NCBI GenBank assembly: GCA_049969675.1
Contig: JBMFOP010000002.1
Location: forward strand, 758-64,757
DNA: 64,000 bases
Source of the DNA: Myxococcota bacterium
GTDB taxonomy: Bacteria > Myxococcota > SpSt-1050
Direction of reading: 5' to 3'
Both the position numbers and the translations under genes were made by a program. The notes under the pieces are model-generated. The model saw nothing but the letters and a program-made list of their open reading frames with translations, made no database searches and was not told the origin of the DNA. Below, piece by piece: positions 3,595 through 64,000 of the stretch (position 1 is its first letter; the number at the start of each line of letters is the position of its first letter).

Positions 3595-3605
3595 GGGGAT
3601 AAGAG

Positions 3606-10054: not shown

Positions 10055-10090
10055 TCAGACCTATCTCAATTAAATTATATATCATCTTAA

Positions 10091-37639: not shown

Positions 37640-37779
37640 TCAAATTCCTCCTAAGATAAAACGAATATTTAATAATTTTAAATTGAAGTGTCAAGGGATT
37701 TATGCAGGACGGAAATAGTTGATTCTTATTGTTGCATTTCAGGAATCTGGGTTGTATAATAAAACTCAGGAGGTGGGAA

Positions 37780-42593: not shown

Positions 42594-43245
42594 ATTTACT
42601 CTGATAACTCTCATTTTCCTCGCCTTCTCTATGTTTTCCTATGAGAGAGAATATGCTGAAGGTTCAAAGAAGGCCCTAAAATGGGAAAAGATGCCAATAA
42701 AGTATCATATAAATAAGTATTGCTATAAACCCATAGAGACAGAAAGGTGCAAAGATGCCATAGTTAAATCTTTTCAGGAGTGGGAGAGTCCGGATTGCAC
42801 AACTCTCAGATTTGAGAGAGGTGAAGATACAGAAGAGGCAAAAGGTTCATTTAATAGTCTGGATATTGAGGCAAATAAAAATATCATTGTATGGTATTAC
42901 AAAGACTGGCCATACGAACCTAATGGTCTGGCACTCACAACTGTTACTTATGATGATAAGACTGGAAAGATCTATGATGCAGATATAGAACTAAATGGTG
43001 TGTTTTATAGATTTGATGTTGTGGAGCGGACACCCTCAACATATACAGATATCCAGAATACAATTACTCACGAAATTGGACATATGATAGGTCTTGACCA
43101 TACTTTCAACCCTGATAGCGTGATGTATCCTACAGCGAGGGCCGGAGAGATAAAGAAACGTAAACTCTCACAGGACGATATTGATGGTGTCTGTGCAATC
43201 TATAAAGAAGATAGCGGTTGCAGCTGCTCTACTCTCTCTTATTGA
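42562..43245 (+). CDS. Secreted zinc metalloprotease, matrixin-like (peptidase M10)
   Basis: Signal peptide. HExxHxxGxxH plus Met-turn (HEIGHMIGLDHTFNPDSVMYP). Confidence 0.7.
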   Translation: MMKRLNFIKSRFTLITLIFLAFSMFSYEREYAEGSKKALKWEKMPIKYHINKYCYKPIETERCKDAIVKSFQEWESPDCTTLRFERGEDTEEAKGSFNSLDIEANKNIIVWYYKDWPYEPNGLALTTVTYDDKTGKIYDADIELNGVFYRFDVVERTPSTYTDIQNTITHEIGHMIGLDHTFNPDSVMYPTARAGEIKKRKLSQDDIDGVCAIYKEDSGCSCSTLSY

Positions 43246-44212
43246 GCACAACTATTCCAAGGTCATTATTTCCCTTTTTGAGTTCCACATTCCTCTGCGC
43301 ACTACTATAAGTAATATTTCCGCCAGAATCTATCCCGTAAATAATAAAACTATACACCCCCTCACTCAGGTCCTGATTCATATACTGCTGAGGGAGACAG
43401 GAGAGTGTCTTATCCAGAAAGACTGCTCCACCAGATGGCGCACTGAAGATAATCCTCACATTGGTTACACCGACATCGTTACAGGATTTACTCTCAGAAC
43501 CGAATGTCCACCCAACCTGAAATATAGCCTTTGTATAAACTCTCTTTAATACAATCACCCCTAAGTCATTGTTTCCAAAGTTGAGGGTCTTCTCAAGACT
43601 TGCAAAATACAAAGGGACACCAGCCACATCATAACCGGTGAGCTCAATAAGATATTTCTTCTTCGGGGCAAATGCTGTTATGGTTCCACCCTTATCAGAG
43701 CATTTTATAAAATCATCAAACTCAACCGTTCCATCTGCATTATAAATCCTGACACCAATCTTTGATACACCAGCCTGCACACAGTCTGTATTTGATTGAG
43801 ACTCAAATGACCAGCTAAATGTAATATCAGATAAGACATAAGCAAGTTCAATCAGGACCACCCTGCCGTTAATATCCACCTCGGATGACCCTGAATATCT
43901 GATCTCACCATTTGACCCAATCCCTTTTAAAACCACACTATAAGTATCAGGGATAAAATTTGTAACAGTTACGCCCATATATTCACAGGAGAAGTTGTTT
44001 TCATATTCCAGAGTTCCATCAGAGTTATAGACTTCAAGCCCAATGACCAGAACTCCAGCCTCAGCACAACTGATATTATTTGGAAATTTCCAGGCTATCT
44101 TCAACTCTCCCGAACCACCCTGTGGAGGAGAGACCCCTCCACAGGAATTGAAAATCAGTACCGTTGCAATGAGAAGAACTAATATATAAAACCTTCTTGA
44201 GTTCGGGTACAT
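43229..44212 (-). CDS. Lipoprotein built from three tandem ~100-aa Cys-pair domains
   Basis: Lipobox (IFNSCGG). Internal triplication, e.g. ISCAEAGVLVIGLEVYNSDGTLEYENNFSC / TDCVQAGVSKIGVRIYNADGTVEFDDFIKC / KSCNDVGVTNVRIIFSAPSGGAVFLDKTLSC. Each unit ends in a GNNDLG(I/V)VVL motif. Confidence 0.5.
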   Translation of the reverse strand: MYPNSRRFYILVLLIATVLIFNSCGGVSPPQGGSGELKIAWKFPNNISCAEAGVLVIGLEVYNSDGTLEYENNFSCEYMGVTVTNFIPDTYSVVLKGIGSNGEIRYSGSSEVDINGRVVLIELAYVLSDITFSWSFESQSNTDCVQAGVSKIGVRIYNADGTVEFDDFIKCSDKGGTITAFAPKKKYLIELTGYDVAGVPLYFASLEKTLNFGNNDLGVIVLKRVYTKAIFQVGWTFGSESKSCNDVGVTNVRIIFSAPSGGAVFLDKTLSCLPQQYMNQDLSEGVYSFIIYGIDSGGNITYSSAQRNVELKKGNNDLGIVVLNKRE

Positions 44213-47200: not shown

Positions 47201-50200
47201 CATCTACAAAAGGTTCGCCCTGATCCACAAATGGCTCACCGGAATCATACTTACCATTCCCGTTGACATCATCAAATTCCTCCTCACCCTTAAATGCAGC
47301 AATCAGAGTTACAAGCCCATCTCTCGGGTTATATGTTTTACCACCTGAGGTATAACGTGGCTCATTGGCAAGAGGGGCAACATCAGCGGGCATTCTCACA
47401 TTGTTCGTCACCAAATTAGCGTATGCGTTTCCATCTTCGCCAATATTTGAGACATTCGTAATAATCCCGGCCTCTGTTATAAATCTTACAGCCACAGGGA
47501 GACTTACAACATTTGTATATCTATCCCTTGCACTTACTACACAATTGGTAGAAACCTTTTCACTCCCAAAACCTCCAAGGTTTTTATATTCACAACCAAA
47601 TGAGACATATTTCCTGTTTGGCTTTGCACCTATAATCACAATCGGATCTGACGATGCCGTGACTATTTGAGTCCCCATCTGCGCCCTTGCAATAATATTT
47701 ATAGTCTGCGCAAGAGTACCGGTTGTAATTATGGTCTTCACGAGACCGTCTTCAGCAGAGATTGAAGATGCTGGATTGAGTGTAATTGCACTTGTCCCGC
47801 TCTGTGCCCCTGTAAATGTAAAATCTACATTCTGACCCGCAAGCGGTCGTCCAGATGAATCAATAACCCTGAAGATTACCTCTGCTGTCTCATTAAATCC
47901 AGAATCTTTTACACCAAGTGGCGACTTTGAAATTGAGAGATATTTAATATCAGCAAGTTGAACAATATTGATTTTCACCTCAGACTTTAATTCGGGGTTG
48001 CTCTGAAATAGAGATGCACTCACTGTTGCCTCGCCTGTTGAATAACCACCCACCATCTCAATTGATGCCAGCCCTCCGGATGTCTGAGTTACACACAGGT
48101 TGGTTGTATTAATCTTGGTATTGATGCACTTATATCCATTTGGACTATTTATATCAGGGGGATTCTTGAAATATCCGAGTGTAGTTGTGAACTTTACAAG
48201 AGTTCCATCAGCAACCGGAATCCCACTGTCATCAATAAGAGTTGCATTAAATTTTGCGGAGTCAACTCCATCAGCCATAATGCTGGTCTTACCAGAATCA
48301 GGCTCCATAAGTATATTGACACCTATAAATGTGACCTTTACCTCGTCAGTAACCTTTGTAGAATATGAATCATTACAGATAAAGCTTGCCTGAATAGTCG
48401 CCGTTCCACCTCTCTCTCCATTTACCATCTGAACAGTTGCCTGCTTATTGCTTGAATTTACTACCAGATATTTTGAACCACCTGCTGTAAATTTACCGAT
48501 ATCTGTGCTGAAAGTAATTGTGGTATCCCAGGGCAATCCATCCTTATCAAGTGGCTCTGCCTTAATAAGGACCTGAGAGACTCCATCAGCGGCGACAGGG
48601 AGAGATGGGGTAAATGAGAGTTTGCTTCTGCAGGCACCTGAACTTATTGTGGAATCCATTCTACCACTTGAGGATATCACAGTCTTCTCAGAACCGGTGG
48701 AGGTCTTTGTCTCTATAGTAGCCGAGACATAAGATGGTTTCATCACCTCCTTTTCAGGGTCATCATCGGCGAGTGTAAATGCCCCGAAATAGCCGGTCCC
48801 AAATGAAAACTCATTTACCTCATAAGATATCTTTGGATTTGTCTGGTTCGCCTTTCTAACTCTTTTAATACCTATGCCGGTCATAGCTGGGACTGTCTTA
48901 CTTGTATCGCCCAGAAGCTTACCGGCACCATCCACCTTGACTTCAATAGTAGAGCCCGGTATTGGGGGGAGGAGATTAAAATCTTTAAAGGCATAATAAA
49001 ATGGCATTGAACCTTTATTTGGTATATCAAATCTCTCCGGACACATCACAGATTGAGAATTTGGATCCGGGGTCGCCCCAAGGCACTTCCCACCAGTAGC
49101 AATATTTCCAGTCCAGACTACCCATGTTGCCTTCCAGATAACCGTATTCCCATCCCATTTGCCATTTGGACCATCATACTGACCATTTAGATTTACATCT
49201 ATAAATGCCTCATCTGAATCCCATTGATTGTTGTCATTCATATCCACAAAAGGCTCACCTAAATCTACGAACGCCTCACCCTCATCGTACTGCCCATTTC
49301 CATTCTCATCATCAAACTCCTCCTCACCTGTTGTCGCCGCTATTATAGTTACTAGACCATCTCTCGGATTTCTTGCAAGCCCCGTCCCCACCCTCGGTTC
49401 ATCAGTAAATGGCTGCACATCTTTGGGCCTTGGGTCCTGAGTTCTCAGTGTTACATTGGCAATCCCCATTGAATCCGGGTCTTCACTTGTCTCAGAAGAT
49501 GGTGTGATTGCCCCCGCCTCTGTCCTGAAGAATATCTTTGTAGAAAATGGAATCTTATTTGAAAACCTATCTGCAATAGCCACCGAGCAGTGCTGTTCAA
49601 GAAGGTCATATACGAATCCCTGAACATTTATATCACCAGGGTTACAACTAAAATTGAAATACCTCGCATTGGGAACACCCGTGGTCATTACCACCGGACC
49701 ACACCTCGCCTCACCAACTTTGGATGAGCCCTTTACCCATACCGTAGTTGGGACAGTGCCGGCATAAAGTATAGTACAGGCAAGCCCTGAGTCATCAGAG
49801 ACCATACTTGTAGGATTGACATATATGCCACCCGGTGCATCTGATGGCGCGAAACTTAATGTAATCTTTGATATTGGTGCACCCTGGTCATCAACCACCT
49901 TAAAACACATATTGGTATAATCTTTATGACCAGAATTCTTGAGCCCAAGATGACTATCTCCAATATATTCACAGGATATTGTAGCATTCCTGATGAGTCT
50001 CACATCTATCGTTTTAGAGAGCTGTCTATCCAAGACTCTGGTCTGAACATTGACTGTAGCAATACCCATATCTCCATCAGACTTCAACTGGACCGATGCC
50101 TTCCCGCCTTCTGTCTTAACTGTTAGATGTTTTGTCTTTGAATTATCCGTTGTAACAAAATATCCAAGTACAGTATCAAAGATTACATCAACCTCTGGCG

Positions 50201-51101
50201 AGACAGGGTTCTCGCCATCCGAGGTGACAGATGCCTCAATCTTCAGTGAGTCAATACCGTTTGCAATCAGATATTCGTATTCACTCGTAACCTTGAGAGT
50301 TGGAGACTTTTCCGGCTCCTGCATAGATATCTTTAATGGCTCGTTTGTATTGGAGACCAGCTCATTACCCTGCGCATCCTTACACTTAAAACTGGCATTG
50401 ACCTGAATCTCGGTATTGGCATAACTGATCGCATAAATCTTGACCTTTGCCGCGCCCTGAGCATTTGTCAGTGCAGATGTACTTAGCACCGGTGTATCAG
50501 TCTTGCTTACAAATGAACCGGGAGAGGTGGTTGTAAAGGTAATCTGAGTACCTGAACTTACCGGTTTTCCTTCATAGTCTGTGGCATTCGCAGATATCTC
50601 AGCATAATCCTCTCCATTGGCAATAATTGACTTCTTATCTGCTGATAGGACTATCAAACAGGGCTCACCGGTCTCAACAGGGATCTTCGTAAAGACCACA
50701 GATGCGGTCTTTCTGTATTCTTTATTGGTTGACGGGTCCGTATAAGCGGCTGTAATTGTGACAGTACCATCTTCTTCAGATGTAAGACTCTCAGTAGCCT
50801 TACCATCGGTAGTATAGACAACCACACTATTTGTATTGTTGGAAAATTTTCCTTTACCTGTCGCATTGAGTGTGATCTCACTATCATCCGGGGCATTCTG
50901 ACCACCAATGGTAAGTCCAATTGTAATCCTGGCTGCCGTCTTCCCATCAGCAGGGACATTGGAAGAAGGGCTCACTGAGAGGGTAAGTTTCACTACTGTA
51001 GAAGGGCCTGTATCTTCTACAGATGCACCACCTCCGCCTCCACAGGAGACGATGAGCACTGTCATAAACACAATTGAAAGGATACCTGAATATTTTTTCA
51101 T
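44229..51101 (-). CDS. Giant (2290 aa) surface lipoprotein/adhesin with Ig-like (Big_1-type) domains and EF-hand-like calcium-binding loop pairs, organised as three ~690-aa super-repeats
   Basis: Lipobox (LIVSCGG). Invasin/intimin-like Ig segments (e.g. LGVKDSGFNETAEVIFRVIDSSGRPLAGQNVDFTFTG). 12-residue DxNxNGxxDxxE loops in pairs (DENGNGQYDEGE, DVNGNGKYDSGE, DNDGNGDFTGSE). Super-repeat anchors PNARYFNFSC / PNRKYVSFGC / PSARYMNFSC. Confidence 0.6.
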   Translation of the reverse strand: MKKYSGILSIVFMTVLIVSCGGGGGASVEDTGPSTVVKLTLSVSPSSNVPADGKTAARITIGLTIGGQNAPDDSEITLNATGKGKFSNNTNSVVVYTTDGKATESLTSEEDGTVTITAAYTDPSTNKEYRKTASVVFTKIPVETGEPCLIVLSADKKSIIANGEDYAEISANATDYEGKPVSSGTQITFTTTSPGSFVSKTDTPVLSTSALTNAQGAAKVKIYAISYANTEIQVNASFKCKDAQGNELVSNTNEPLKISMQEPEKSPTLKVTSEYEYLIANGIDSLKIEASVTSDGENPVSPEVDVIFDTVLGYFVTTDNSKTKHLTVKTEGGKASVQLKSDGDMGIATVNVQTRVLDRQLSKTIDVRLIRNATISCEYIGDSHLGLKNSGHKDYTNMCFKVVDDQGAPISKITLSFAPSDAPGGIYVNPTSMVSDDSGLACTILYAGTVPTTVWVKGSSKVGEARCGPVVMTTGVPNARYFNFSCNPGDINVQGFVYDLLEQHCSVAIADRFSNKIPFSTKIFFRTEAGAITPSSETSEDPDSMGIANVTLRTQDPRPKDVQPFTDEPRVGTGLARNPRDGLVTIIAATTGEEEFDDENGNGQYDEGEAFVDLGEPFVDMNDNNQWDSDEAFIDVNLNGQYDGPNGKWDGNTVIWKATWVVWTGNIATGGKCLGATPDPNSQSVMCPERFDIPNKGSMPFYYAFKDFNLLPPIPGSTIEVKVDGAGKLLGDTSKTVPAMTGIGIKRVRKANQTNPKISYEVNEFSFGTGYFGAFTLADDDPEKEVMKPSYVSATIETKTSTGSEKTVISSSGRMDSTISSGACRSKLSFTPSLPVAADGVSQVLIKAEPLDKDGLPWDTTITFSTDIGKFTAGGSKYLVVNSSNKQATVQMVNGERGGTATIQASFICNDSYSTKVTDEVKVTFIGVNILMEPDSGKTSIMADGVDSAKFNATLIDDSGIPVADGTLVKFTTTLGYFKNPPDINSPNGYKCINTKINTTNLCVTQTSGGLASIEMVGGYSTGEATVSASLFQSNPELKSEVKINIVQLADIKYLSISKSPLGVKDSGFNETAEVIFRVIDSSGRPLAGQNVDFTFTGAQSGTSAITLNPASSISAEDGLVKTIITTGTLAQTINIIARAQMGTQIVTASSDPIVIIGAKPNRKYVSFGCEYKNLGGFGSEKVSTNCVVSARDRYTNVVSLPVAVRFITEAGIITNVSNIGEDGNAYANLVTNNVRMPADVAPLANEPRYTSGGKTYNPRDGLVTLIAAFKGEEEFDDVNGNGKYDSGEPFVDQGEPFVDENDNGYCDGSTPADETLRQQNKPYNCAELYIDTNADGKYTPANGVWDSHSDPNDNSLVWVKTYVLWTGPVAPGSDCKQNEPNLSVICPITFNLADGSTQDFSYEIKDARLNPPTKSSIITLFTIGKIGIDGKSPVINDDLGMKITTGRSCQSYICSEQTAISDFSAGIKGTFAVFDDVVGDSGQTQNVSANVKIIYSFDPSADEKQYDQSATITSLGVMNDPNATGPCAFRLEASNSVIQANGTDSTVITVKDIRNQFNQPIGANVPVQLTTTLGKFSNGEQEIVVLTNNNSEATVTMFGGSEAGAAEVTAQYFCGNKVPMRKITIIIRPADALTNYFISVVASDLSLIADGDSRTTITAFVFDNTNAPVKTGSVKITTTDGTLECIDPAPQCVYNDIQHKDITVQLNNSGNASAKLISGPAAALARIEGKFTTPDNKVISNSTYVNFVTLGSIIYQSITSDVMGAKGSGFNETAIISFKVFDNIGQRFPKNQRVDFTLSNSPGGIVIIPPYAYTDDSGMVYATIKSGTVATTFTVTASSTLPGITVQGVSPAIAIIGAKPSARYMNFSCERKVVAALGGTPVEVPCKVSLGDRYTNKIEKATTVHFRSEAGLMTSQALTYDRETAKSTYPNDWEAYLGTATASLRTSEPYPYDTTPIAGEPFNGTNNPRDTVVSIIAVTTGEEEFYDNDGNGDFTGSEMWRENIFTTPQAQKFDAGTDQKCRRIDIASYDPPRCNNWINTVGGDTISASEPFVDLPEPFFDADDDNVRNLPVELFFDTNGDGIWSSGNNKWDSNTNIYKETIMAWSDAINLVTDPYPSAGQCNGSNPVSPGINLLCPNTTFSMRNGETYKFNFKVCDSHFVNQPGAVIEFTTAKPLSDEIPPPPPPVISGPSTFIVPEKPPYKLSFSYSSPTQVTVCQIDPQDSNYKICYINNVIKINKTLQLQSDHCYINSVTLQAVLLDSVSGTVQTYLKGTMSEKVLWYIPGSVTY
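44900..51000 (-). repeat. Three in-frame super-repeats of ~2.0-2.1 kb within the giant lipoprotein gene
   Basis: The GEEEF(D/Y)D-encoding block recurs near 45150, 47280 and 49310. Flanking segments are diverged at DNA level (protein identity roughly 40-60% by eye). Confidence 0.5.
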
Positions 51102-52938: not shown

Positions 52939-53667
52939 TCAAAATGTGTATTTTATTGATGGTTGGAGATTCAAGAAGAGTGTGCCTATACCAAGGAAAT
53001 AATATGCCCTTGCCTCAATGGCAATGGAGAAATGCCTCAGGGTTGTATAATATTCAGCCCCAACTCCGCCATCAAAGGCTGGAGATGTTCCGCTCATAGA
53101 GAGTTCCGAACCATCACTCTTATAATTCTTATCAGGAGAGAGGAATGCAAAACCACCACCTGCCCTGACATAGGCAAATAGCCTATCAGTTGAAAGGTAT
53201 GCAAATTTTGCAGAGAGACCAATCAATTTTATAGCGACATCGTTTGAGAGGTACTTCGGATAATTCTCGGCACATTTATCTACATCAATATTATCTCCAA
53301 ACTCCTTTTTGCACTTATTTGCATCAAAATACACCATCTTCCCTTCTTTATTGTATCCATATCCATAGGCATAACCGGTGGAATTATCAGCAGATATAAA
53401 AAATGAATAGAATCCAGCCTCTACAGAGAGTATATCCATAATATCATATCCCACAGTCATTGAATTGGTAAAGCCGGAGGAGAGTCCGGATACATCAGAC
53501 ATAATGGAAAGCCCATATGCAAGGTCTGTATTTACAAAGATACCCTTATGCACCTCAGTAATCTTCTTAACCTTATAAGCGGATGTGGCTGTAGTCTCAG
53601 TCTGCGCAAAGAGAGAGAAAGAAAATAAAGAAATAATAATCAAGAAGAGTGCATTTCTTCCAATCAT
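52939..53667 (-). CDS. Outer-membrane beta-barrel protein (GltH/NfsH-like position)
   Basis: Start set at the Met after an AGGAG SD (MIGRNALFLIIISLFSFSLFAQTE signal peptide). The ORF track's upstream extension is unlikely. Alternating hydrophobic beta-strand pattern and aromatic C-terminus (SIKYTF). Confidence 0.5.
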   Translation of the reverse strand: MIGRNALFLIIISLFSFSLFAQTETTATSAYKVKKITEVHKGIFVNTDLAYGLSIMSDVSGLSSGFTNSMTVGYDIMDILSVEAGFYSFFISADNSTGYAYGYGYNKEGKMVYFDANKCKKEFGDNIDVDKCAENYPKYLSNDVAIKLIGLSAKFAYLSTDRLFAYVRAGGGFAFLSPDKNYKSDGSELSMSGTSPAFDGGVGAEYYTTLRHFSIAIEARAYYFLGIGTLFLNLQPSIKYTF

Positions 53668-54059
53668 AAAAACTCCTATTAGAAAATGAATTATAATTGA
53701 AAATGGTTTTTTCATTAAAACAGGAAAGGCGGAAGAATTATATAATTCTCGGCTCTTTGAATCACTACCATCATAAAGGACTGATTCAGAAACCAGTCTC
53801 GCCTTTCTCAAACAATTTTTTAGGAAGTTATTTATTCGTTTGTAGATACTGATGTCTCCATATCTTCTTTCTCTGACACGACTCTTAACTACAACTGTTC
53901 TATCCATTTCTCTATTACTGTCAATACGGATCCCAATGTGTTCTCCAGACTCCTTATTGTCACTACCTCTGTTTGCAAATTTTCCAGGACTATTTTTGTT
54001 ATGCCTTCTCATAAATCTTTTCTACATCTAAGAGAATTTTTTATAGTTAACTCCCGTCT

Positions 54060-55928
54060 TTAATCTGTTCTCTTGAGTATAAATGGATATGTCACAATCA
54101 CAATACCTCCACCCTTTGGCTCGGGGAATTTCCATCCTTTAATCTTACTAACTATACAATTCTCAACATTCTGGTTATTAATTGTGGTCTCTTTCACCTT
54201 TGCTGACTGAACTGAACCTGTTGGAGATATTACAAAGTTGACTGATACCTTACCCCAAAGTCCAGGATTCTTTGCAAGCTCAAGCTCATAGCAGTATCTT
54301 ATCTCATTTGCATGTGCCCTGATAACTCTTCTGATCAATTCCTTATCAAGTGAACCGAGGACCATTGGAGTTCCACCAGATATACCTATATCATGTTCCT
54401 TCTTTCCACCAATTGAACCCACACCATAACCATAACCACCCTGTCCCGCACCTCTCCCTCTGGTACCAACAGAGCCGATGCCGATAGAATCAAGGCTGGA
54501 ACCTCCGCCACCAGGACCAACACCTCTAAGCCCTAATCCACCCGAGCCCCTTGCATCACCTATCTGAGAACCAAATAGTCCTCCAATAGCATTTTGTAAA
54601 TCACCTCCAAGACCTTTTCCACCAAATAATGTTGAGCCACCGGCAAACATACCACCACTCTTGCCAAACATTTTCAACACTCCAACTTTCTGGACAATCT
54701 CCCTATCATCGGGTTTAATTGCCTTTACAGCAGACCTCTTAAAAACCTCTGGTGCATCTTTCTTGCCCATCTTACCTTCCTTACCTGCTGCTTTTGCACC
54801 CGACTCGCCCTGCTTTGGCATCTCCTTTAATTTCTTCATCTCTTTATCATCGTCCATTTTCTTCGCTGGTGTCATAATGAAGTTGACAAATTTATTAGGA
54901 TTTTTAACCACCTGTTCGGTCTCAGCCTTTATATCGTATGGGAATAGATACATACTTACCAGTGATGTAACCGTAAAGAAGACAGCCACAATAAGGGCAT
55001 TTAAATAATTGTAATCAACATTAGTTCCCAATCCGAGAGGGAGTTTTCTTGGTGGAGGTGTAAATCTAAACTGAAAAATTGCATTGTTAATATACATTCT
55101 GGTAATCGAATTAGGGGGCAGTGTATAGATATAAGAATCGGGTATTTGAGGATCAGGAAGTGCCCTTTTTTCATCTATCAAATCCTTGAATGACTTTGAA
55201 CTCTCTCCAATATAGACCTCTCCCTCCACATTCCTTGGAAAGGTGAGTTGATATTCTCTATTTACTGTTCTAATAACTGGATATTCAGGGATGGTTATCT
55301 CATCCGGTATAATATAGAAATCACACTTACTCGTTGAACCTATAGTCACCTTCTGAGGATATGTAAAATATTTTACATCAACCATCTCCATATACCACAG
55401 GAACTTTACCTCAATAGCCCTATTTCCATAAGGGTCCTTCTCCTCCTCTTCATGCTCATCCAAATCCCTCTTTGATGCACCCTGTGGCTTTATATTCTCT
55501 TTAGGCTTACTCTTTTGAACCTCTCTCTTCTCTAATTTTGGAGATACTAACTTCTCCTCCTTTACAACCTCCTCCCTCTCCTCTTCAACTACCGGGGCTA
55601 CTGCAACTGGAGATTTTATAACACCTTTATCAATTGATACAATCAGCTTTGTCTTCCCGAGGAGAATCTCATCACCGTCATTTAATACAGCCCTTTCTAC
55701 GGTCTCTCCATTGACTATGGTTCCAGCGGATGAGCCCATATCCTTAATGAGATATCCATCTGATGTGGCTTCAATATGTGCATGAACCCTTGAGACTGTA
55801 GGGTCATCCAGCTTCAGATTAACAGAGGATAGTCTTCCAATTTTAATGAGAGCATCTGAATATGTCTCCTCTCCAATAAACTCATCACCATAATAAATCT
55901 TAAAAGAAATCTTTTTATCCATGGTCAT
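54060..55928 (-). CDS. FHA + TM + AgmX/PglI C-terminal (TonB-C-like) domain protein, GltG/PglI/NfsG-like
   Basis: FHA (IGRLSSVNLKLDDPTVSRVHAHIEATSDGYLIKDMGSSAGTIVNGETV). Acidic/Pro-rich linker, TM (LNALIVAVFFTVTSLVSMYLF), Gly-rich region. C-terminal domain with the conserved Cys pair (ANEIRYCYELELAKNPGLWGKVSVNFVISPTGSV ... NCIVSKIKGWKFPEP). Confidence 0.65.
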   Translation of the reverse strand: MTMDKKISFKIYYGDEFIGEETYSDALIKIGRLSSVNLKLDDPTVSRVHAHIEATSDGYLIKDMGSSAGTIVNGETVERAVLNDGDEILLGKTKLIVSIDKGVIKSPVAVAPVVEEEREEVVKEEKLVSPKLEKREVQKSKPKENIKPQGASKRDLDEHEEEEKDPYGNRAIEVKFLWYMEMVDVKYFTYPQKVTIGSTSKCDFYIIPDEITIPEYPVIRTVNREYQLTFPRNVEGEVYIGESSKSFKDLIDEKRALPDPQIPDSYIYTLPPNSITRMYINNAIFQFRFTPPPRKLPLGLGTNVDYNYLNALIVAVFFTVTSLVSMYLFPYDIKAETEQVVKNPNKFVNFIMTPAKKMDDDKEMKKLKEMPKQGESGAKAAGKEGKMGKKDAPEVFKRSAVKAIKPDDREIVQKVGVLKMFGKSGGMFAGGSTLFGGKGLGGDLQNAIGGLFGSQIGDARGSGGLGLRGVGPGGGGSSLDSIGIGSVGTRGRGAGQGGYGYGVGSIGGKKEHDIGISGGTPMVLGSLDKELIRRVIRAHANEIRYCYELELAKNPGLWGKVSVNFVISPTGSVQSAKVKETTINNQNVENCIVSKIKGWKFPEPKGGGIVIVTYPFILKRTD

Positions 55929-55938
55929 CCCTTTCGTC

Positions 55939-56238
55939 TTAGAGGTCTGAGACCGAACCTAAGATCTTATTCTTAAAATCCTCTCTATATTTGATCAGAT
56001 TCTGATGTTTAACCTTTGCAGCGCTCTGAATATATTCACCATCGGGCTTTGTAAGGTCTCCAGTAATCAGGTCATCTTCAAAGTCATAGACCGTCTTCTT
56101 CTTATATAGAGTTTGCCCATCTGAGACGGTTGCATTCTCCTCTTCGTCTGCGAAACTTAATTGAGAATTCAGAAGAAATATTATGGCAAAGACAATTGAG
56201 AGGAAAAAAAGTCTCTTCATCATACTACCTCCAGACAA
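55939..56238 (-). CDS. Small periplasmic protein (GltF/NfsF-like position)
   Basis: Signal peptide (MKRLFFLSIVFAIIFLLNSQLSFA). ~75-aa mature acidic protein with no recognisable motif. Sits between the TPR genes and the FHA/TonB-C gene, as gltF does. Confidence 0.4.
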   Translation of the reverse strand: MSGGSMMKRLFFLSIVFAIIFLLNSQLSFADEEENATVSDGQTLYKKKTVYDFEDDLITGDLTKPDGEYIQSAAKVKHQNLIKYREDFKNKILGSVSDL

Positions 56239-56283
56239 TTACTATTATAACACCATACCCTTATTAATTCAAATAGTATTATT

Positions 56284-58311
56284 TTATTCATCCTCATCTC
56301 CGTTTGATTGTGGATTCTTTGTGGATTCTGACTTTACCCCTTCAGACGGTTTATCCTCACCCTTTTTCTCTTCTGGTTTCTGCTCTGTCTTCTTTTCCTC
56401 TGCCGGCGGCTGTTGTGTCTGCGCTGTAGATTGCGGAGTATTTTCTCCCTTCGATGTCCCTTCCAGCGGTTTTGGTGGTACTACCTGCTGTTCTGGGAGT
56501 GCCGACTTCTTAGACTCTGCCTCTGCCTTTTTCTTTTGTTCCTCTTCTGCCTTCTTCTGTGCCTCTTCTGCCTTCTTAGCCTTTTCCTCCGCCTTCCTCT
56601 TCTCCTCTTCAGCCTTCTTCCTCGCCTCCTCTTCAGCCTTCTTCTTAGCCTCTTCCTCTGCCTTCTTCTTCTCCTCCAGAACCTTCTGTGCATACTGAGT
56701 CATTGTCTCTGAGTATATCTTCTCAGCCGCCTTCGGAGCCTGATCCATAGCAAGCTGCTCAAGTACATCTTTATTCAACATCTGCAATAAATTCTTCTTG
56801 AAAAATTGATATGCCATCTCTGGAAGCATCTTCCTTGCCTGATCCGGGATTGTCTTCTTATCTGTAATCTTGAAAGATGCCTGAATGATATCAGCCTCTA
56901 TCGCCTCTGGTGCCACAGCATATATCTCCTCTTTTAGAGTCTTATCCACCTGCTCAAGGATCGCCTTTCTCACAGCAGTAAATGAATCCAGTATAACCTT
57001 ATCACGAATATCCTTCTCAGCCTTCTTATCATCCATAGGCTTTACAAGTTTTGCAACTGTCTTCTCACATGCCTTTCTAATTGGGGGGTCAAGTATCTCT
57101 GACAGTACCTTATTGTAAGCCTCCTCTACAGCCTTATCCTTATCCTTCTCTATCGCCTGATTTACGAGCGCCATTCTCTCCTCTTTGTCCTTTGCATCCT
57201 TTGCAAGGGCTGCCTTCTCTTTTACTTCCTTAATATATTGATATACAGGGTCCTTCATCCCGAGAGCCGTCCCCATTGTAGTCTTATACATCTCAAACCA
57301 CCTGATAGCCTCATCATAATTTTCATACCCTTTGTACATCAAGATCCCCATATTCATCATAGCAGCAGTGTCCTTCGGGTCAAGTTTCAGCATTGTCTCA
57401 TAGGTTCTCTTTGCATCCTCAAATTGTTTCTTTCCTCTGTACGCGACTGCCAGCCCCAAAAGGGCATCCCTATTTCTCGGTTCATAACTCAGGACCTCTG
57501 TAAACTGCTTTATAGCGCCGTCATAATTACTATACTTTAGTGCAATTGCCCCGATATTCATCTTGGCATCTATCATATCCTTCTTAAGGCTTACCACCTT
57601 CACAAACTGATTCAAAGCGCCAGATTCATCATCCAACTTCAAGAGAATCATCCCAAGGATATTATTCAGGCCCGGGTCGTTTGCATCTATCTTAAGACCT
57701 TGAATACAGGTGAGCCTTGCGAGTTGAAATTTATTTGCATCGTAATATATCATCGAGAGGACTCTATATGCCTCAAGATTTGTCGGGTCAAATCTAAGGG
57801 CCTTTCTACAGTACTTAATTGCCTCGTCAGCTTTATTCTGCTCCTTATAAATGGATGCCAGAATTACATTGTATCTTGCAGATTTCTCATCTTTCTTTAG
57901 CAAAGCCTTTGCAACCTCAATCGCCTGATTAAGCTTCTTCGCCTTACGATACACATTTATCAAATTTTCTGCAGCAATATCCATCTTTAAGGAAGCCATT
58001 TTATAATATTTTTCTGCATTATCCAGATCTCCCTTCTTCTCATACAGAAATCCGAGATTGTAATAGACCTCCGGGATAGAGGCACCAGAAGATTCAAACG
58101 ACTTAAATCTTGAAATCAGTTCATCATAGTTTATTACACCAGATGCCTCCTGTTCCTTATATAGTGCTACCGCAGATTCAAAATCAGACTGACTGACACT
58201 GAGAGAAACAGACTTTGCAGGTTGAACTGCTGCCTCCCTTGTCTTACCCGGACATCCTGCTATAACAAATGCAATCAATATTATAAAAGATGCAATATAC
58301 ACCTTATTCAT
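56284..58311 (-). CDS. TPR-repeat lipoprotein with K/E/A-rich charged C-terminal tail (GltE/NfsE-like position)
   Basis: Start set at MNKVYIASFIILIAFVIAGC (lipobox). The Arg-rich 40-aa extension in the ORF track is an out-of-frame read-through artefact. Multiple TPR units. C-terminal ~120 aa of (E/K/A)n repeats. Confidence 0.6.
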   Translation of the reverse strand: MNKVYIASFIILIAFVIAGCPGKTREAAVQPAKSVSLSVSQSDFESAVALYKEQEASGVINYDELISRFKSFESSGASIPEVYYNLGFLYEKKGDLDNAEKYYKMASLKMDIAAENLINVYRKAKKLNQAIEVAKALLKKDEKSARYNVILASIYKEQNKADEAIKYCRKALRFDPTNLEAYRVLSMIYYDANKFQLARLTCIQGLKIDANDPGLNNILGMILLKLDDESGALNQFVKVVSLKKDMIDAKMNIGAIALKYSNYDGAIKQFTEVLSYEPRNRDALLGLAVAYRGKKQFEDAKRTYETMLKLDPKDTAAMMNMGILMYKGYENYDEAIRWFEMYKTTMGTALGMKDPVYQYIKEVKEKAALAKDAKDKEERMALVNQAIEKDKDKAVEEAYNKVLSEILDPPIRKACEKTVAKLVKPMDDKKAEKDIRDKVILDSFTAVRKAILEQVDKTLKEEIYAVAPEAIEADIIQASFKITDKKTIPDQARKMLPEMAYQFFKKNLLQMLNKDVLEQLAMDQAPKAAEKIYSETMTQYAQKVLEEKKKAEEEAKKKAEEEARKKAEEEKRKAEEKAKKAEEAQKKAEEEQKKKAEAESKKSALPEQQVVPPKPLEGTSKGENTPQSTAQTQQPPAEEKKTEQKPEEKKGEDKPSEGVKSESTKNPQSNGDEDE
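56480..56700 (-). repeat. Low-complexity GCC/TTC/CTT-rich DNA encoding an (E/K/A)n tail
   Basis: Repeated gccttcttc / ctcttcagcc units on the + strand, encoding EEKKKAEEEAKKKAEEEARKKAEEEKRKAEEKAKK on the - strand. Generates spurious antisense ORFs. Confidence 0.6.
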
Positions 58312-61300
58312 TGCCTTCCTCCTCCGTCTTTGAATCACCCTTCTCCTCCATAGTACCTCCCTCCCTTTCTGGCTCTGCCTCCTTCTTTGTCTTTTCGCCC
58401 TTCTTCTCCTCCGTCTTCTGCCCCATCTCATCTACATTCTTCTGTTCTACCTGTTTTGGCTTCTCTATCTCCTTCTTCTGTGTCCTCATCTCTTTTACCC
58501 TCTTATCCCAGTCAAACGCCATCGCAAATGGATTTGATTCAAGAACCTGTCTGAAATTATCGGGCTTTGGCTTTATCTCATCTCCAGATGGATACTCCTG
58601 TGGTCTCAACTCGTAAAGTCTCTTTAAAGACTCAACAGACCAATTATTAAAGACACCCAACTCAGAGGATTTTGAGAGGGCTGCCTGATAATGTGCAACC
58701 GCCTTCTCCTCAAGTGGCATGGTCTGTTCACGAATCATCTGCTTATAGAGGTCTTTCTGTTGTTTGGTCTTTAACTCTTTCGGAATCGGCATCTCCAGAA
58801 AGCCCTTGATAAACTTCTCGTATGCCTCTCCAATCTTATATAAACTGGCTATAGCCCATTCTGCCACTTTGATATTTACTATATCTGCATATGCCTTATA
58901 GACCTTCTCCATCGCCTTTGTCTTGTCGGCAAATCTCTTCTTAAATGTAGCCTCAGGCATCTCCAGTTTAATGGCATCAAACTGAGCAAATACCGGGGCT
59001 ACCATAATAAATTTTGCGTGTGCAACTGCCTCTAACGCCTCAGGTGTAAATTTGTCCTTTTCCTTGCTCTTATCATAAATCTTGATTGCCTGTTCAAATT
59101 TCTTCTCAGCCTCTTTCTGATTTCCAAGTTCTCTTAGCAGCAAGCCCTGTTTTACTATGATTGGGATGAGTTTATTTACATCTGATTTTGAATACTTCTT
59201 CTCATACTCCTGATATACCTCAAGCTCCTTCTTCTTGTCTTTCATAATATTGTAAATCTTCGCTATTGAGAGATGAACCTCTGGTATATCAGACTCCCTC
59301 GGATAATCCTTTATATACTTCCTTCTCGCATCAATCGCCTCCTGATACATATCAAGTCCCAATAAATATGTACCTGCGTTGAAGAGGGCCGTCGGCGCAT
59401 CCTTCTCTTTCGGGAACATCTCTACAAATTTTAGATAGTATTTTGCTGCATTTTCATAGTCTGCCTCATCTCTGTATGACTCAGCAACGGAGTATAAGGT
59501 CTTTGGTGCAAGTGAGGATTTGGGATATTTTTCCACAAGTAGTATCCTCATCTTAATAGAGTCTTCAAACTTCTGTGCCTTACTATAATTGGCAGCCGCA
59601 TTATAGAGTGCTGTATCAGCCATCTTTGTATCCGGAAATTCCTGCTGGAATTCATAATACTTTTTTGCAGCGACCTCATACTCCCCTTTCTTTTCATAAT
59701 CTTCAATCAGTTTGAATGCCGATTCGGCGACGAGCCTCTTTAGGTCCTCAAGCACTTTCCCCTTGGCAATCTTCGGGTTCTTTAAAAATTCGCGAGTCCA
59801 TTTATTTAGTTCTGCCCAGTTCTGAGCAAGGTTAAATGAGTCCAGAATCAGATTTACTGCGTATTCTGCTACCTTGCTATCCGGATACTTTAGAGCCACA
59901 TCCGCAAATAATCTATTCGCCTCCTTAAAGTAGTTGTATGAATAAAATAAATAACCTATCTCGTATGTAATATCTGGCAATCTCTCTTTATGCTCATTCC
60001 ACTTGTCCATAGAGAGTTTGGGTGGCTTCTTGTCGGCTACGAGGATACCAATATATTTCTGCATTGCATCAATCCTCTTCTTCTGTATCGGTGGCATCTC
60101 AACTGGTGTCTTAATCTTTGCCGATGGCAATTTTACTCCCTTTGCGGCATTCTTATATGAGATTATCGCTGAATGTATTGCATCCAGATTCAATTCGCCC
60201 TTCGGGTCCATCTTTACCACTTTCAGATATGCATCTCCGGCACTCTCCCATTTCTGCAGTTTGTAAAGTAATTCAGCGTAGTAGAAATTGAGGGTATAGG
60301 CATCTTTGGCATTTGGAAACAATTCAAGATAGTCGCCATAGAGCTCGTGTGCCATAAAATAGGTCTTCTGCTGTCCGGTCTTCTTCGCCTCATTATGATA
60401 GGTCGTTGCAAGCTTTCGTAAGAGTGACTCTGTCAACTCCTCTGCCTCTTTATAATTCTTCGCCATCTCCTCAAGTCTCTTCTTCTCCTGTACATCAGTG
60501 GTCTGTTCTATTAATTTCTTCTCCGGTACCTTTGACCTGATATTTTTGAACATATCCACGAGAACCCTTGCCTCTTCCACGGCCTGTCTCTTATTTGCCA
60601 TCCTGTCGTATGACTCCACAATCCTTGCCTGATAGGTAAGATTCCTCATATCGTCAGGCTTTTCAGAAATCAGTAATTTATGAATCTCCACTGCCTCCCT
60701 ATCCTTTCCCTGATCAAAGAGTAGCTGTGCCAGTGTCCTTATCATATCCAGATACTTCTCGGGCCCGGCGATCCTCAGAAAACGTTCCTTGGCATCGCTC
60801 ACATTTCCAGCATTTGAGTATGTAAGGACGAAATCCTTCATCGCCTCCTTCTGAAGTGTAAGTTTATTCTCTTTATTCTCTTCCACATTGGTAAGGGAGT
60901 ATGTAATCACCTTTTCAAAGACATCCAGTGCCCTATCCCACTCTCCAAGGTTATAATAGACCCACGCCATTTTATACATTGCATATCCATATACCCTTGC
61001 GCTCTCATCCTTTGCTGCCCTCTTATATGCCTCTATTGCCCTCTGCAAATCACCTTTATTGAAATAATATTCACCAAAACTCACATAGGCATCCGGGACA
61101 TATTTTGATTCTGGATAGTCCTTTATCAAAGTCCTGTACATCTTGAGTGCCTCTTCCTGCTGTCCCATCTCCATCAGATTAAATCCATAATAAAAATATA
61201 CCTCATCTATCCTCGGATAGTTTGGGTATTTGTCAATCAGGGTCTTATACATCTCCAGCGCCCTGGTTCTGAAATTCTCCTGTTGCTTTTTTAGTGCCTC

Positions 61301-61678
61301 CTTCTCCTTCTGAATCATCTTCAATTTTTCTGGCTGTTTTTCATATTTTACCTCCTCGGAGGTCTTTTCCATAATCTTCATCCATCTAAATTTTGCCTTC
61401 TCACTGTATATCTCTGCCATCCTGAACAGGATCTTTGGCTTTTCCTCATCCGAGACTCCTAACTTGAGCATACGGTTCATCGTCTCAAGCTCCTTATCCC
61501 TGATCTCCTCCATCTCTGTGCCCACCTGAAAGAATTGGTCTTCAAACTTTAAATCCGGCCTCACCTGTTCCTGAGGCTTCTGAGCACCTTTCCCCTTCTT
61601 CTGTGCAAATAGAGGAATAGAAGTAAAACTCAGAATAATAAATCCAGCCGTCAATAAACAAACTATTTTCTTCATCAA
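58304..61678 (-). CDS. Large (1124 aa) TPR-repeat exported protein (GltD/AgmU/NfsD-like position)
   Basis: Signal peptide (MMKKIVCLLTAGFIILSFTSIPLFA). TPR units along the whole length. Charged K/E-rich N- and C-terminal segments. Confidence 0.6.
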   Translation of the reverse strand: MMKKIVCLLTAGFIILSFTSIPLFAQKKGKGAQKPQEQVRPDLKFEDQFFQVGTEMEEIRDKELETMNRMLKLGVSDEEKPKILFRMAEIYSEKAKFRWMKIMEKTSEEVKYEKQPEKLKMIQKEKEALKKQQENFRTRALEMYKTLIDKYPNYPRIDEVYFYYGFNLMEMGQQEEALKMYRTLIKDYPESKYVPDAYVSFGEYYFNKGDLQRAIEAYKRAAKDESARVYGYAMYKMAWVYYNLGEWDRALDVFEKVITYSLTNVEENKENKLTLQKEAMKDFVLTYSNAGNVSDAKERFLRIAGPEKYLDMIRTLAQLLFDQGKDREAVEIHKLLISEKPDDMRNLTYQARIVESYDRMANKRQAVEEARVLVDMFKNIRSKVPEKKLIEQTTDVQEKKRLEEMAKNYKEAEELTESLLRKLATTYHNEAKKTGQQKTYFMAHELYGDYLELFPNAKDAYTLNFYYAELLYKLQKWESAGDAYLKVVKMDPKGELNLDAIHSAIISYKNAAKGVKLPSAKIKTPVEMPPIQKKRIDAMQKYIGILVADKKPPKLSMDKWNEHKERLPDITYEIGYLFYSYNYFKEANRLFADVALKYPDSKVAEYAVNLILDSFNLAQNWAELNKWTREFLKNPKIAKGKVLEDLKRLVAESAFKLIEDYEKKGEYEVAAKKYYEFQQEFPDTKMADTALYNAAANYSKAQKFEDSIKMRILLVEKYPKSSLAPKTLYSVAESYRDEADYENAAKYYLKFVEMFPKEKDAPTALFNAGTYLLGLDMYQEAIDARRKYIKDYPRESDIPEVHLSIAKIYNIMKDKKKELEVYQEYEKKYSKSDVNKLIPIIVKQGLLLRELGNQKEAEKKFEQAIKIYDKSKEKDKFTPEALEAVAHAKFIMVAPVFAQFDAIKLEMPEATFKKRFADKTKAMEKVYKAYADIVNIKVAEWAIASLYKIGEAYEKFIKGFLEMPIPKELKTKQQKDLYKQMIREQTMPLEEKAVAHYQAALSKSSELGVFNNWSVESLKRLYELRPQEYPSGDEIKPKPDNFRQVLESNPFAMAFDWDKRVKEMRTQKKEIEKPKQVEQKNVDEMGQKTEEKKGEKTKKEAEPEREGGTMEEKGDSKTEEEGNE

Positions 61679-61731
61679 CAGACCTCCATAATCGGCAACC
61701 CCTCAGAGAGAGGATGCAAAACCATTTGATA

Positions 61732-63555
61732 TCATTTATTACACCCTTTTAGCATAGTGTAATGATATGTGCCAAGTTCATCCCGCCAGTACTCACCCTC
61801 ATAAGGCCAGTAGAGCTCATTATCTTCAGTTGCACCTGTGTACTTCTTGTTCAGTATCTGCACAGAGAAATCCTGCCCCTTGAGTTTGGATTCAAGCAGA
61901 TTCTTCTTGGCTGTCTCAACCTCAAGTTGAATTCTCAATGCCTGTTGAATTAGCTCCCTCAATTCATCTCTATGCAAAATAATAGAATCCTTCATAACAG
62001 CACCAGCCATTGACATCAACCTTCTCTTATCATTGGTCAAATCCGCTATCGCCTTCTTTGCAACCTGTGAATTTCTCCAGTATCCACTCTGCTTTGCAAT
62101 TGATTGAATCTCCTTATCTATCTGAGAAATCGCATCATTGTATCTCCTGGCAATCTTATTGCTCAGGACACTTGCCATAATCCTTCGCTTCATATCCGTC
62201 TTTGCTGTCTGCTCACCAATACTCATCTCCATCTTATGAAAATATTCGTAATACTTATCATCGTTCATCTTCTGAACTACAATCTTATTTAGCTCCTCAT
62301 AGAGATTCTGATATGTCTCCATAAATTCATCAACAAAGGACGCCGCCTCAGGATACCGACAGTTATCATAATAAATAACTGCCTTAATAATAGTCGCCTC
62401 AGGGAAGAATTCATCTTTAAAGAATGGAGATGAAAGCGTAATCAAGTTGCCCAGTGCCTTTTCATAATCCCCCATCCTGAAATATGCCCAGGAGGATTCA
62501 AAGAGAGATTCCAGCCAGTTGTCAGAATCCCTGCTTATCTTATTATAGTAATATACAGAATTCTTAAATTGCCCTGCCTGATAGTGTATTCTTGCCAGTT
62601 GTAAGAAGGCATTTTCCCTTAATTCTTCATCTACAACCAGGCCCTTTTTGGGATTTGTAAGTTTTACGACATCTCTAAAGACATTGACTGCATCCTGAAG
62701 TTTATTCTCTCTATATAGGATAATTCCCTCCAGATATCTCGCCTTCGGGAAGAGTGGAGAATTCTCTGCGATTCTATTTATCATCACCCTCGCAGAGGCA
62801 AAATCATCCTTTTCGTAATAATATTTTGCGAGCAGGAAGTGAGATTGATCCCTATATTTTGCAGGGAAGTCTACATCGGGATATCTGGATAGAGCCTGTA
62901 ATAAAGATGAGTCATCCGATAATTTCTGGCTAATAAAGATTCCCCACTCAATAGATGACTGGAAGAATCTGTGAGCGGTTCCCTTATTAATAATCTGCAC
63001 AAAATAATTGAGTGAGGCATAATATTTTTTCATACGATAAAGGGCTTTGGCAATATTATATTCCGCTGCCTGATGAAACTCCATATTCTTTGGGTCTGCT
63101 AAAATCTCATAAAAAAGTATTGTGGCGTTCTGAAACTCACCCTGTTTCATAAGAGAGAGGGCCTTATCCATCTTCGCCTTGTCCGCTGCCTGAGTGGTCC
63201 CGAGTTCAAGTGCATCAAATGTAATTGCACCCCTGAATGCAGGTTGAATCGCCGGTTTTTTCTCCTCTAAGGGTGGGGCAACAACAGCCTTCCCTTTATC
63301 GGGTTTTGAGGGCATCAACTCCTCTGGAACCGCTGATGGCACCTCCTCTTTAGGAGCCACTGATGGCTTCTCCTCTGCTGCCTTCTCTCTCCCCTTCTTT
63401 GCCTTCTTTTCCTTTGGAGCCTTCTTCGGTGCCTCCTTCTTGGGCGCCGCCTCGTCCATATCCAGATCCAGTCCCTCAAACTTTATCTGTCCATACGAAG
63501 AGAGGCAGAAGAGAAAGGAGAACGCAAAAATAAATATACTCTTAAATCTTATCAT
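61732..63555 (-). CDS. TPR-repeat exported protein, 607 aa (GltC/NfsC-like position)
   Basis: Signal peptide (MIRFKSIFIFAFSFLFCLSSYG). K/E/P/A-rich low-complexity region followed by TPR units. Confidence 0.6.
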   Translation of the reverse strand: MIRFKSIFIFAFSFLFCLSSYGQIKFEGLDLDMDEAAPKKEAPKKAPKEKKAKKGREKAAEEKPSVAPKEEVPSAVPEELMPSKPDKGKAVVAPPLEEKKPAIQPAFRGAITFDALELGTTQAADKAKMDKALSLMKQGEFQNATILFYEILADPKNMEFHQAAEYNIAKALYRMKKYYASLNYFVQIINKGTAHRFFQSSIEWGIFISQKLSDDSSLLQALSRYPDVDFPAKYRDQSHFLLAKYYYEKDDFASARVMINRIAENSPLFPKARYLEGIILYRENKLQDAVNVFRDVVKLTNPKKGLVVDEELRENAFLQLARIHYQAGQFKNSVYYYNKISRDSDNWLESLFESSWAYFRMGDYEKALGNLITLSSPFFKDEFFPEATIIKAVIYYDNCRYPEAASFVDEFMETYQNLYEELNKIVVQKMNDDKYYEYFHKMEMSIGEQTAKTDMKRRIMASVLSNKIARRYNDAISQIDKEIQSIAKQSGYWRNSQVAKKAIADLTNDKRRLMSMAGAVMKDSIILHRDELRELIQQALRIQLEVETAKKNLLESKLKGQDFSVQILNKKYTGATEDNELYWPYEGEYWRDELGTYHYTMLKGCNK

Positions 63556-63598
63556 CTCTTTCTACTCCTTAATAATCAGTAAAAAGTGAATGTCAAAA

Positions 63599-64000
63599 TC
63601 ATAACTCCTCTTCAAACTGCATCGGGAAGTAGATTCCTACTCCAACAAGACCAAGTATGTGATTCTGAATATCTGTGATACCATCAGGATAATATTTTGG
63701 TTTGAGGTCCATCGTATAAATAATGTCTTTGAGCTCAAATTTCAAAACCAGCCATCTTGAAAGGAATATCCTCTCCCCAATACCTACAGAGCTCATAAAC
63801 CTGATTCCACCCATATCCTTCTCAACTCTATTGCTTAAATCACCTTCCCAGCCCCTGTACTCAACGCCCACCACCCCAAAGTTGAGTGAGATGAAAGAAT
63901 CAAAGTGCACAATCAAATCTGAAAGGAAGCTGACCTTTCCGTATATCGGGGACCAGCTCGCCCCACCAGATGCAAAATACTTCATCTTCCCCATCTCCGG
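63599..64000 (-). CDS. Hypothetical protein, C-terminal part (gene continues beyond window edge); possible outer-membrane beta-barrel (GltB/A-like position)
   Basis: Reading frame stays open upstream of the Met at 63994. Alternating hydrophobic pattern (SFISLNFGVVGVEY ... GIRFMSSVGIG ... LVLKFEL). Weak evidence. Confidence 0.3.
   Translation of the reverse strand, partial: PEMGKMKYFASGGASWSPIYGKVSFLSDLIVHFDSFISLNFGVVGVEYRGWEGDLSNRVEKDMGGIRFMSSVGIGERIFLSRWLVLKFELKDIIYTMDLKPKYYPDGITDIQNHILGLVGVGIYFPMQFEEEL

Follow-up and report, generated by a model that had tools for sequence, protein, structure and literature searches.

What does the set of minus-strand genes at the 3' end of a 64,000-nt stretch of contig JBMFOP010000002.1, from a bacterium labelled Myxococcota, encode, and could its products take part in gliding? 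This whole stretch is called the window here, and all coordinates refer to it. The initial annotation, made from the letters alone, had read the genes at 52939-64000 as a counterpart, in architecture and gene order, of the Glt (gliding motility) and Nfs (spore coat assembly) envelope complexes of Myxococcus xanthus. Curated protein family models and synteny both agree with that description, and the homology of the block to the Glt envelope complex is secure. We propose further, with a probability of roughly 0.6, that this complex, together with an unlinked AglRQS-type motor, drives a gliding-type motility through an outer-membrane platform and an adhesin acting on the substratum.

The cluster was confirmed to consist of seven minus-strand open reading frames (ORFs), which run as follows: GltA-type barrel, GltC, GltD, GltE, GltF, GltG and GltH. 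The barrel ORF alone is cut by the window end, and the remaining six are complete. The features, in transcription order, are the following:

63599..64000, minus strand: gltA/gltB-type barrel gene, 3' part, encoding the last 133 residues of a 260-aa protein (TIGR04565 OMP_myx_plus)
61732..63555, minus strand: gltC, 607-aa secreted tetratricopeptide repeat (TPR) protein (NF033756)
58304..61675, minus strand: gltD (AgmU-like), 1123-aa secreted TPR scaffold protein, with homologues in gltD-E-F-G-H loci
56284..58311, minus strand: gltE (AglT-like), 675-aa TPR lipoprotein (NF033758, below cut-off)
55939..56238, minus strand: gltF (CglF), small secreted protein whose length from a TTG is 99 aa (NF033764)
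54060..55928, minus strand: gltG (PglI-like), 622-aa inner-membrane protein with an FHA domain, a transmembrane (TM) segment and an AgmX/PglI tail (NF033768)
53668..54059, no strand: gltG-gltH spacer, ~390 nt, peculiar to this genome
52939..53667, minus strand: gltH (CglE), 242-aa predicted 8-stranded outer-membrane beta-barrel (NF033755)

Strand, order and five of the tight junctions are as initially described, the intergenic gaps in transcription order being 43, 53, -8, 45 and 10 nt, with the gltE start overlapping the gltD stop by 8 nt; the claim of tight spacing fails at the last junction, between gltG and gltH, which measures 389-392 nt. The lengths of 607, 675 and 622 aa stood as well, while three others needed adjustment: the last barrel is 242 aa from the ATG at 53667 rather than 243 aa, a figure with one codon too many, GltD is 1124 aa from a TTG (58304-61678) and 1123 aa from the ATG used by NCBI, and GltF is probably a few residues shorter, as described below. 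Among the seven genes, three carry names in the public record: GltC, CglE and, generically, a beta-barrel protein. No record matched the 622-aa, 675-aa or 99-aa protein exactly, and the NCBI starts of these three probably differ. Signal peptides were detected on GltC, GltD, GltF and GltH, a lipobox signal on GltE, and none on GltG; these predicted localisation signals fit the spread over inner membrane, periplasm and outer membrane described for Glt.

GltC gave the clearest assignment among the TPR proteins. It matched NF033756 (gliding_GltC) with 575 bits over residues 18-606, against a cut-off of 450, and the next family reached 42 bits; its exact sequence is found in NCBI as MGC8926438.1, 'adventurous gliding motility protein GltC [Myxococcota bacterium]'. 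In M. xanthus the genes of the Agl-Glt system lie at two loci, G1 (gltD-J) and G2 (gltK-B-A-C). The top Myxococcaceae matches of our GltC all come from loci that have the B-A-C arrangement of G2: a pair of small barrels upstream and, on the downstream side, no gltD. No dedicated NCBIfam model matched GltD, for which repeated generic YbgF/BamD-type TPR matches were the only ones, and its NCBI version (P0001, 100% identical) is named just 'tetratricopeptide repeat protein'. Its relatives, 102 homologues of about 1100-1200 aa, point to GltD: the best ones in Myxococcaceae (P0053, P0050 and P0047) are all in clusters of the D-E-F-G(FHA)-H type, followed by a protein of ~550-650 aa and a giant, GltI-like TPR protein, which is the arrangement of G1. 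Five GltD homologues whose loci were inspected (these three from Myxococcaceae, P0063 and P0058) are all in G1-type or other contiguous glt-type loci, and GltD aligned with the GltD of locus L082 at 30% identity over 1188 alignment columns (E=1e-151). GltE scored 184.5 bits (E=3e-54) with NF033758 (gliding_GltE) over residues 29-394, under the cut-off of 225, with a margin of more than 100 bits over PrsT (80 bits), MamA and PilW (73 bits). It carries the lipobox IAGC and, as a peculiarity of this lineage, a C-terminal extension of ~280 aa ending in a K/E-rich tail (23% K and 25% E over residues 546-675), and it is 29% identical to the GltE of L082, which occupies the syntenic position.

Could generic repeats have produced this picture, so that unrelated TPR and outer-membrane genes of the Bat/aerotolerance, PEP-CTERM/PrsT or PilW type only look Glt-like? 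Cross-matches among TPR families do occur here, and the PrsT and PilW scores of the GltE-like protein are of this kind. We reject this explanation, which we regard as hardly credible given the margin of GltC over the next family, the genomic neighbourhoods of the GltD relatives, a gene order identical to glt/nfs, and four non-TPR assignments (GltF, GltH, the GltG tail and the OMP_myx_plus barrel) that pass Glt-specific cut-offs. The TPR proteins group with GltC, GltD and GltE, as the initial annotation had proposed, and not with Bat or PEP-CTERM families.

Two of these non-TPR assignments concern GltF and GltG. GltF exceeded the cut-off of NF033764 (gliding_CglF) with 101.4 bits versus 90, CglF being the same protein as GltF (PMC4488436), and showed 64% identity over 55 aa to the gene at the same position in L082. 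As its relatives are 91-93 aa long, GltF probably starts at the methionines of the MMKRL motif (ATG 56223/56220) and would then have 93-94 aa. For GltG, NF033760 (gliding_GltG) was clearly the best family with 523 bits (E=1e-156), under its cut-off of 650. More specifically, an FHA domain (Pfam, 65 bits) occupies residues 28-91, a single TM segment spans residues 307-331, a Gly-rich linker (40 Gly within residues 421-520) comes after it, and the C-terminus (residues 527-619) matched the AgmX/PglI model NF033768 with 121.9 bits versus a cut-off of 40. The FHA domain, the TM segment and the AgmX/PglI tail, like the K/E tail of GltE, had been claimed beforehand and were found. The predicted layout of GltG is a cytoplasmic FHA domain, one TM helix, a Gly-rich linker and a periplasmic, TonB-C-like AgmX/PglI tail; a PDB sequence search with GltG gave matches confined to the FHA domain.

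At the outer membrane, both proteins suspected to be barrels behaved as such. GltH passed NF033755 (gliding_CglE) with 98 bits versus a cut-off of 70, and Pfam OmpA_membrane with 21.5 versus 21; CglE is GltH (PMC9946355). A profile search of 1.84 billion representative proteins retrieved 154 relatives, and 91 sequences were used in the alignment for AlphaFold2. The resulting model has eight long antiparallel strands, with a mean predicted local distance difference test (pLDDT) score of 90.2 and a predicted template modelling (pTM) score of 0.78, and an insert of ~50 residues in one loop (residues 95-144) with two cysteines. Foldseek against the PDB matched this model to the OmpA TM domain, NspA, Ail, OmpW and OmpX, with a probability of 1.00. 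The protein ends in KYTF, and its last Phe is invariant across the 91 sequences. According to the model, GltH is an 8-stranded OmpA/OmpX-like outer-membrane barrel. As a technical observation, the outcome of the prediction was set by alignment depth: 14 close homologues gave a false helical model with a pLDDT of 40, and 91 diverse sequences gave the barrel at 90.

The edge ORF passed TIGR04565 (OMP_myx_plus) in the NCBIfam profile search with 67.7 bits versus a cut-off of 60. The gene is predicted to reach ~64381, beyond the window end, and a second contig (L081), 99.93% identical to window positions 56593-64000 and extending 1102 nt further, supplied the complete 260-aa barrel protein; the full-length homologue in the related locus L002 scored 90.2 bits. 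In NCBI the protein is MGC8926439.1, 'outer membrane beta-barrel domain-containing protein'. It is slightly closer to the gltC-adjacent barrel (gltA by position) than to the distal one in most Myxococcaceae loci. The initial annotation had suggested a check for one or two further barrel genes beyond position 64000. The edge barrel was completed there; a second one was not found between the next upstream gene and gltC. In this interval L001, L002 and L081 each have one OMP_myx_plus gene; two barrels upstream of gltC are present in all other loci whose upstream sequence is long enough. A second copy of the A/B barrel may be present elsewhere in the genome.

The next upstream gene, which lies beyond the window end (from ~64406), encodes a predicted lipoprotein of 673-678 aa directly upstream of the barrel gene (L081 1-697, a 231-aa C-terminal fragment; L001 7132-9153; L002 7149-9185). 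It contains 39 cysteines and a DNSGS motif of the MIDAS (metal-ion-dependent adhesion site) type, and is conserved at 73-88% identity in the species of the window and two relatives, the L081 fragment being 88% identical to L001. In the flanks of the other Glt loci compared (L004-L080), no homologue was found. The M. xanthus lipoprotein CglB, which binds the GltABCHK platform, has 17 Cys, a VWA domain and a MIDAS site (PMC9946355). The resemblance of the MIDAS lipoprotein to CglB, drawn from the published description of CglB, is a lead and not a result, and the protein is possibly an operon-linked adhesin. Divergent from this adhesin-glt block runs another conserved gene (L001 5419-7035, minus strand; L002 5457-7190, minus strand) coding for a protein with a DUF4388 and a DnaJ-like domain and a sub-threshold match to an MshE-type cyclic di-GMP-binding motif; this protein may be a regulator of the cluster.

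How far does this arrangement extend, and in which organisms? The closest genomes are three metagenome-assembled genomes with 81-86% GltC identity, labelled 'Bdellovibrio sp.' (L001) and, for the other two, 'Deltaproteobacteria bacterium'; the next GltC relatives are Myxococcota, at 33-42% identity. The block of eight genes (adhesin candidate, barrel and C-D-E-F-G-H) is kept in L001 and L002 with 72-90% protein identity and different flanking genes, and is partly present in L003, L081 and L083. SecA identities were 86-90% within the own clade of the organism, 66-67% to uncultured 'Deltaproteobacteria', and ~60% to a mixed set from Desulfuromonadales, Deferrisoma and Nitrospirota, which, as far as this protein suggests, places the lineage no further than having no close cultured relative. 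The lineage is deep-branching, low-GC and uncultured. The non-Myxococcus background noted initially is correct as to genus, but the phylum label that NCBI gives to the identical proteins is 'Myxococcota bacterium'; window GC is 36-46%.

Compared with M. xanthus Agl-Glt, the block has the same homologues of GltA/B and GltC to GltH, with the same domain architectures and internal gene order. The differences are that two loci there correspond to one block here, that two A/B barrels there correspond to one here, and that GltK, GltI and GltJ are not nearby here; GltE is ~190 aa longer, GltH has the ~50-aa loop insert, and GC is about 40%. Identity to the Myxococcus proteins is 28-37% over full-length alignments (C, D, E and H) and rises to 55-64% over short conserved segments of the GltG tail and of GltF. 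An arrangement in one block was known before. Homologues of G1 and G2 are grouped in Anaeromyxobacter (Luciano 2011, PMC3169522), and contiguous barrel-barrel-C-D-E-F-G(-H) blocks were found in L004, L005, L009 (Vulgatibacter), L075 (Anaeromyxobacteraceae), L076, L077 and L087. These loci of Anaeromyxobacter and other non-Myxococcaceae Myxococcota have barrel(s)-C-D-E-F-G(-H) in one block, as here, and differ by their two A/B barrels upstream of gltC and, for those among L004-L080, flanks that have no MIDAS lipoprotein homologue. In Bdellovibrio bacteriovorus, a gliding non-myxobacterial predator, four expanded clusters (e.g. Bd0828-0838) combine the core complex with GltA/B and GltF homologues. 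Motor genes belong to these clusters, and GltH, I, J and K are missing from them (PMC3169522); the block described here has GltH and no adjacent motor.

The comparison with nfs raises the question of whether the block might instead move something other than the cell. In M. xanthus, nfsA-H is a single cluster (PMC3169522) of eight genes in A-to-H order with no I/J/K paralogues and its motor elsewhere (PMC3858216), a layout that is shared here except that two barrels, NfsA and NfsB, stand against one. An Nfs-like or other non-motility surface transporter, in which the same kind of motor would move a surface polymer such as coat, capsule or slime, would account for a contiguous A-to-H cluster that lacks I, J and K, exactly as in nfs (PMC3858216), and for the lack of genes for the cytoplasmic platform (GltI, GltJ and AglZ) nearby; moreover, the M. 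xanthus Glt-like paralogue sets G4 and G5 are dispensable for motility, with functions unknown (PMC3169522). Against it, the best Myxococcaceae matches of GltC and GltD are the motility clusters G2 and G1 and not nfs-type clusters (in a comparison set without Nfs sequences), GltC, CglF and CglE are above equivalog cut-offs, and the cluster has a linked gene for a candidate adhesin. The glt/nfs duplication has been placed in a terminal branch of Myxococcales, as a recent event (Wartel 2013, PMC3858216), Nfs being a paralogue that coexists with Glt, and the window proteins C, D, E and H are only 28-37% identical to those of Myxococcus. From the position of the duplication and these identities, the window system is most simply seen as the unduplicated, unsplit form, co-orthologous to both Glt and Nfs, and on these alignments it should predate the duplication. 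We consider the transporter alternative rather unlikely.

Returning to a Glt complex that works with an unlinked motor in gliding, the architecture and homology are shown, and by analogy with M. xanthus we infer a motor partner, an adhesin role and a gliding output. An AglRQS motor, proton-driven, TolQR-like and encoded elsewhere, would engage GltG at its inner-membrane TM helix, and GltG would extend into the periplasm by way of the Gly-rich linker and the TonB-C-like tail. GltD and GltE, both secreted TPR proteins, would form with GltF a periplasmic scaffold that GltC would link to an outer-membrane platform composed of the GltA-type barrel and the 8-stranded GltH. This platform would press a surface adhesin on the substratum, so that movement of the motor propels the cell, and the candidate for the adhesin would be the Cys-rich MIDAS lipoprotein encoded immediately upstream. 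Consistent with this scheme, a bacterium that has AglRQS together with GltD, E, F, G, C, A and B has been considered a potential glider (Luciano 2011, PMC3169522), and GltA/B/H/K/C were shown to make up an outer-membrane platform to which CglB, a VWA adhesin, is bound (Islam 2023, PMC9946355).

Several observations weigh against gliding as the output. The organism is uncultured and no phenotype exists; GltG and GltE score under their equivalog cut-offs; and a single GltA/B barrel is present, while GltA and GltB of M. xanthus depend on each other for stability (PMC9946355). The link between the MIDAS lipoprotein and CglB is weak, consisting of 46 bits over 51 residues with a Bdellovibrio MIDAS-adhesin model and a sub-threshold Pfam VWA match, and a PDB sequence search with this protein gave no match. 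Neither GltI, GltJ nor GltK (a cytoplasmic, an inner-membrane and a lipoprotein component) was detected in the window or in those flanks of the relatives that were fetched, and no AglZ or MglA homologue was seen near the cluster. GltI, GltJ, GltK, AglZ and MglA are all essential for M. xanthus gliding. Motor genes of the aglRQS, TolQR or ExbBD type were absent from the ~53 kb of window downstream of the cluster, and from the ~7 kb beyond the upstream adhesin gene in L001 and L002 (~10-kb flanks on each side of the gltC match). Within the window, in line with the initial annotation, none of the 36 other substantial ORFs gave a MotA/ExbB/TolQ or ExbD/TolR family match. TolQ/TolR had been considered for small upstream ORFs of L001 and was rejected, as these correspond to HAD, OsmC and other unrelated genes. 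The M. xanthus motor is likewise encoded at a separate locus, so the lack of motor genes nearby neither supports nor refutes the function.

The lack of adjacent motor genes also bears on a further alternative, an ancestral-type envelope 'core complex' unrelated to motility and serving, for example, Tol-Pal-like envelope maintenance. Such a complex was proposed for the Group-B sets of non-gliding Gammaproteobacteria, Fibrobacter and Geobacter (Luciano 2011, PMC3169522), and such cores do occur in non-gliders; the matches of GltD to YbgF/CpoB and BamD TPR models and the TonB/TolA-like tail of GltG would be in keeping with it. Yet Group-B sets keep the motor genes in the cluster and are devoid of the Group-A genes gltA/B/F/H (PMC3169522). 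The block in the window has no adjacent motor, and its gltF, gltH and gltA-type barrel genes, all of Group A, score above cut-offs. We hold this explanation to be improbable.

A more specific form of the gliding proposal would be a pared-down, single-locus Glt machine with one GltA-type barrel and GltH, no GltB or GltK, and the 675-aa, 39-cysteine MIDAS lipoprotein as a dedicated adhesin encoded by the first gene. We put this forward tentatively, as a possibility that we would not favour at present. If true, it would represent an ancestral-like arrangement of adhesin, platform and scaffold, would show which Myxococcus parts are dispensable, and would be simpler to reconstitute. On a broader level, these results add an uncultured low-GC lineage to those with the Glt apparatus, GltH, supposedly a late acquisition, included. 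They support reading the unsplit A-to-H block as ancestral and the G1/G2 split seen in Myxococcaceae as derived; modest leads on a minimal outer-membrane platform and its adhesin come from the single barrel and from the MIDAS lipoprotein gene linked to the cluster. Otherwise the analysis is confirmatory, since what this system is, how it is built and where it occurs outside Myxococcus had already been published, and NCBI already names GltC and CglE.

Some features of the cluster are peculiar to this genome. The gltG-gltH junction has 12-14 nt in L001, L002 and L083 versus ~390 nt here, and NCBI calls the last gene as a 357-aa CglE by extending its start into the spacer; the extra N-terminal 114 aa have no counterpart in 13 homologues of 242-272 aa. 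Repeat and BLAST searches found no repeat of the spacer in the window or the fetched loci, nor copies of the 815-nt gltH-rpsI intergenic region, and the spacer had no Rfam match. The genes rpsI-rplM lie 3' of gltH in the window, the place taken by deoC in the relatives. No Rfam family reached its gathering score in the cluster, the spacer or anywhere in the 64 kb, no tRNA gene was found in the window, and promoter and terminator scans were not usefully above shuffled background.

The rest of the window contains several other loci. At 30-6232, the end of a Tad/Flp pilus locus comprises RcpC/CpaB and two T2SSF genes of the TadB/C type, after which come genes for two FHA-domain proteins, of which one has TPRs, and for an extracytoplasmic function (ECF)-type sigma factor; with an FHA-GGDEF diguanylate cyclase at 31325-32230, FHA domains are unusually frequent in the window. 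The rnpA-yidC-jag-mnmE set at 6758-11422 is often near the replication origin. Between 11553 and 12611 are remnants that, judged by sequence motifs only, resemble a nucleotidyltransferase (MNT)/HepT-type toxin-antitoxin pair: a truncated MNT-like ORF (11553-11801), a second one of 97 aa (11959-12252), and then a DUF86/HepT-like frame split into ORFs of 67 and 50 aa, suggesting a frameshift. A 2290-aa predicted lipoprotein (44229-51101, minus strand) has several Big_1 and invasin-D3 Ig-like domains and apparently long internal repeats, and is adjoined by a 327-aa ORF (43229-44212) with no family match. Finally, a 1185-aa protein with MopE-type Cys-rich metal-binding repeats (37729-41286) is encoded in the most GC-rich stretch (46%), and a 227-aa metalloprotease (42562-43245) is sub-threshold to the myxosortase-dependent MXAN_2677/2678 family (158 versus 250 bits); proteins of both kinds are typical of Myxococcota.

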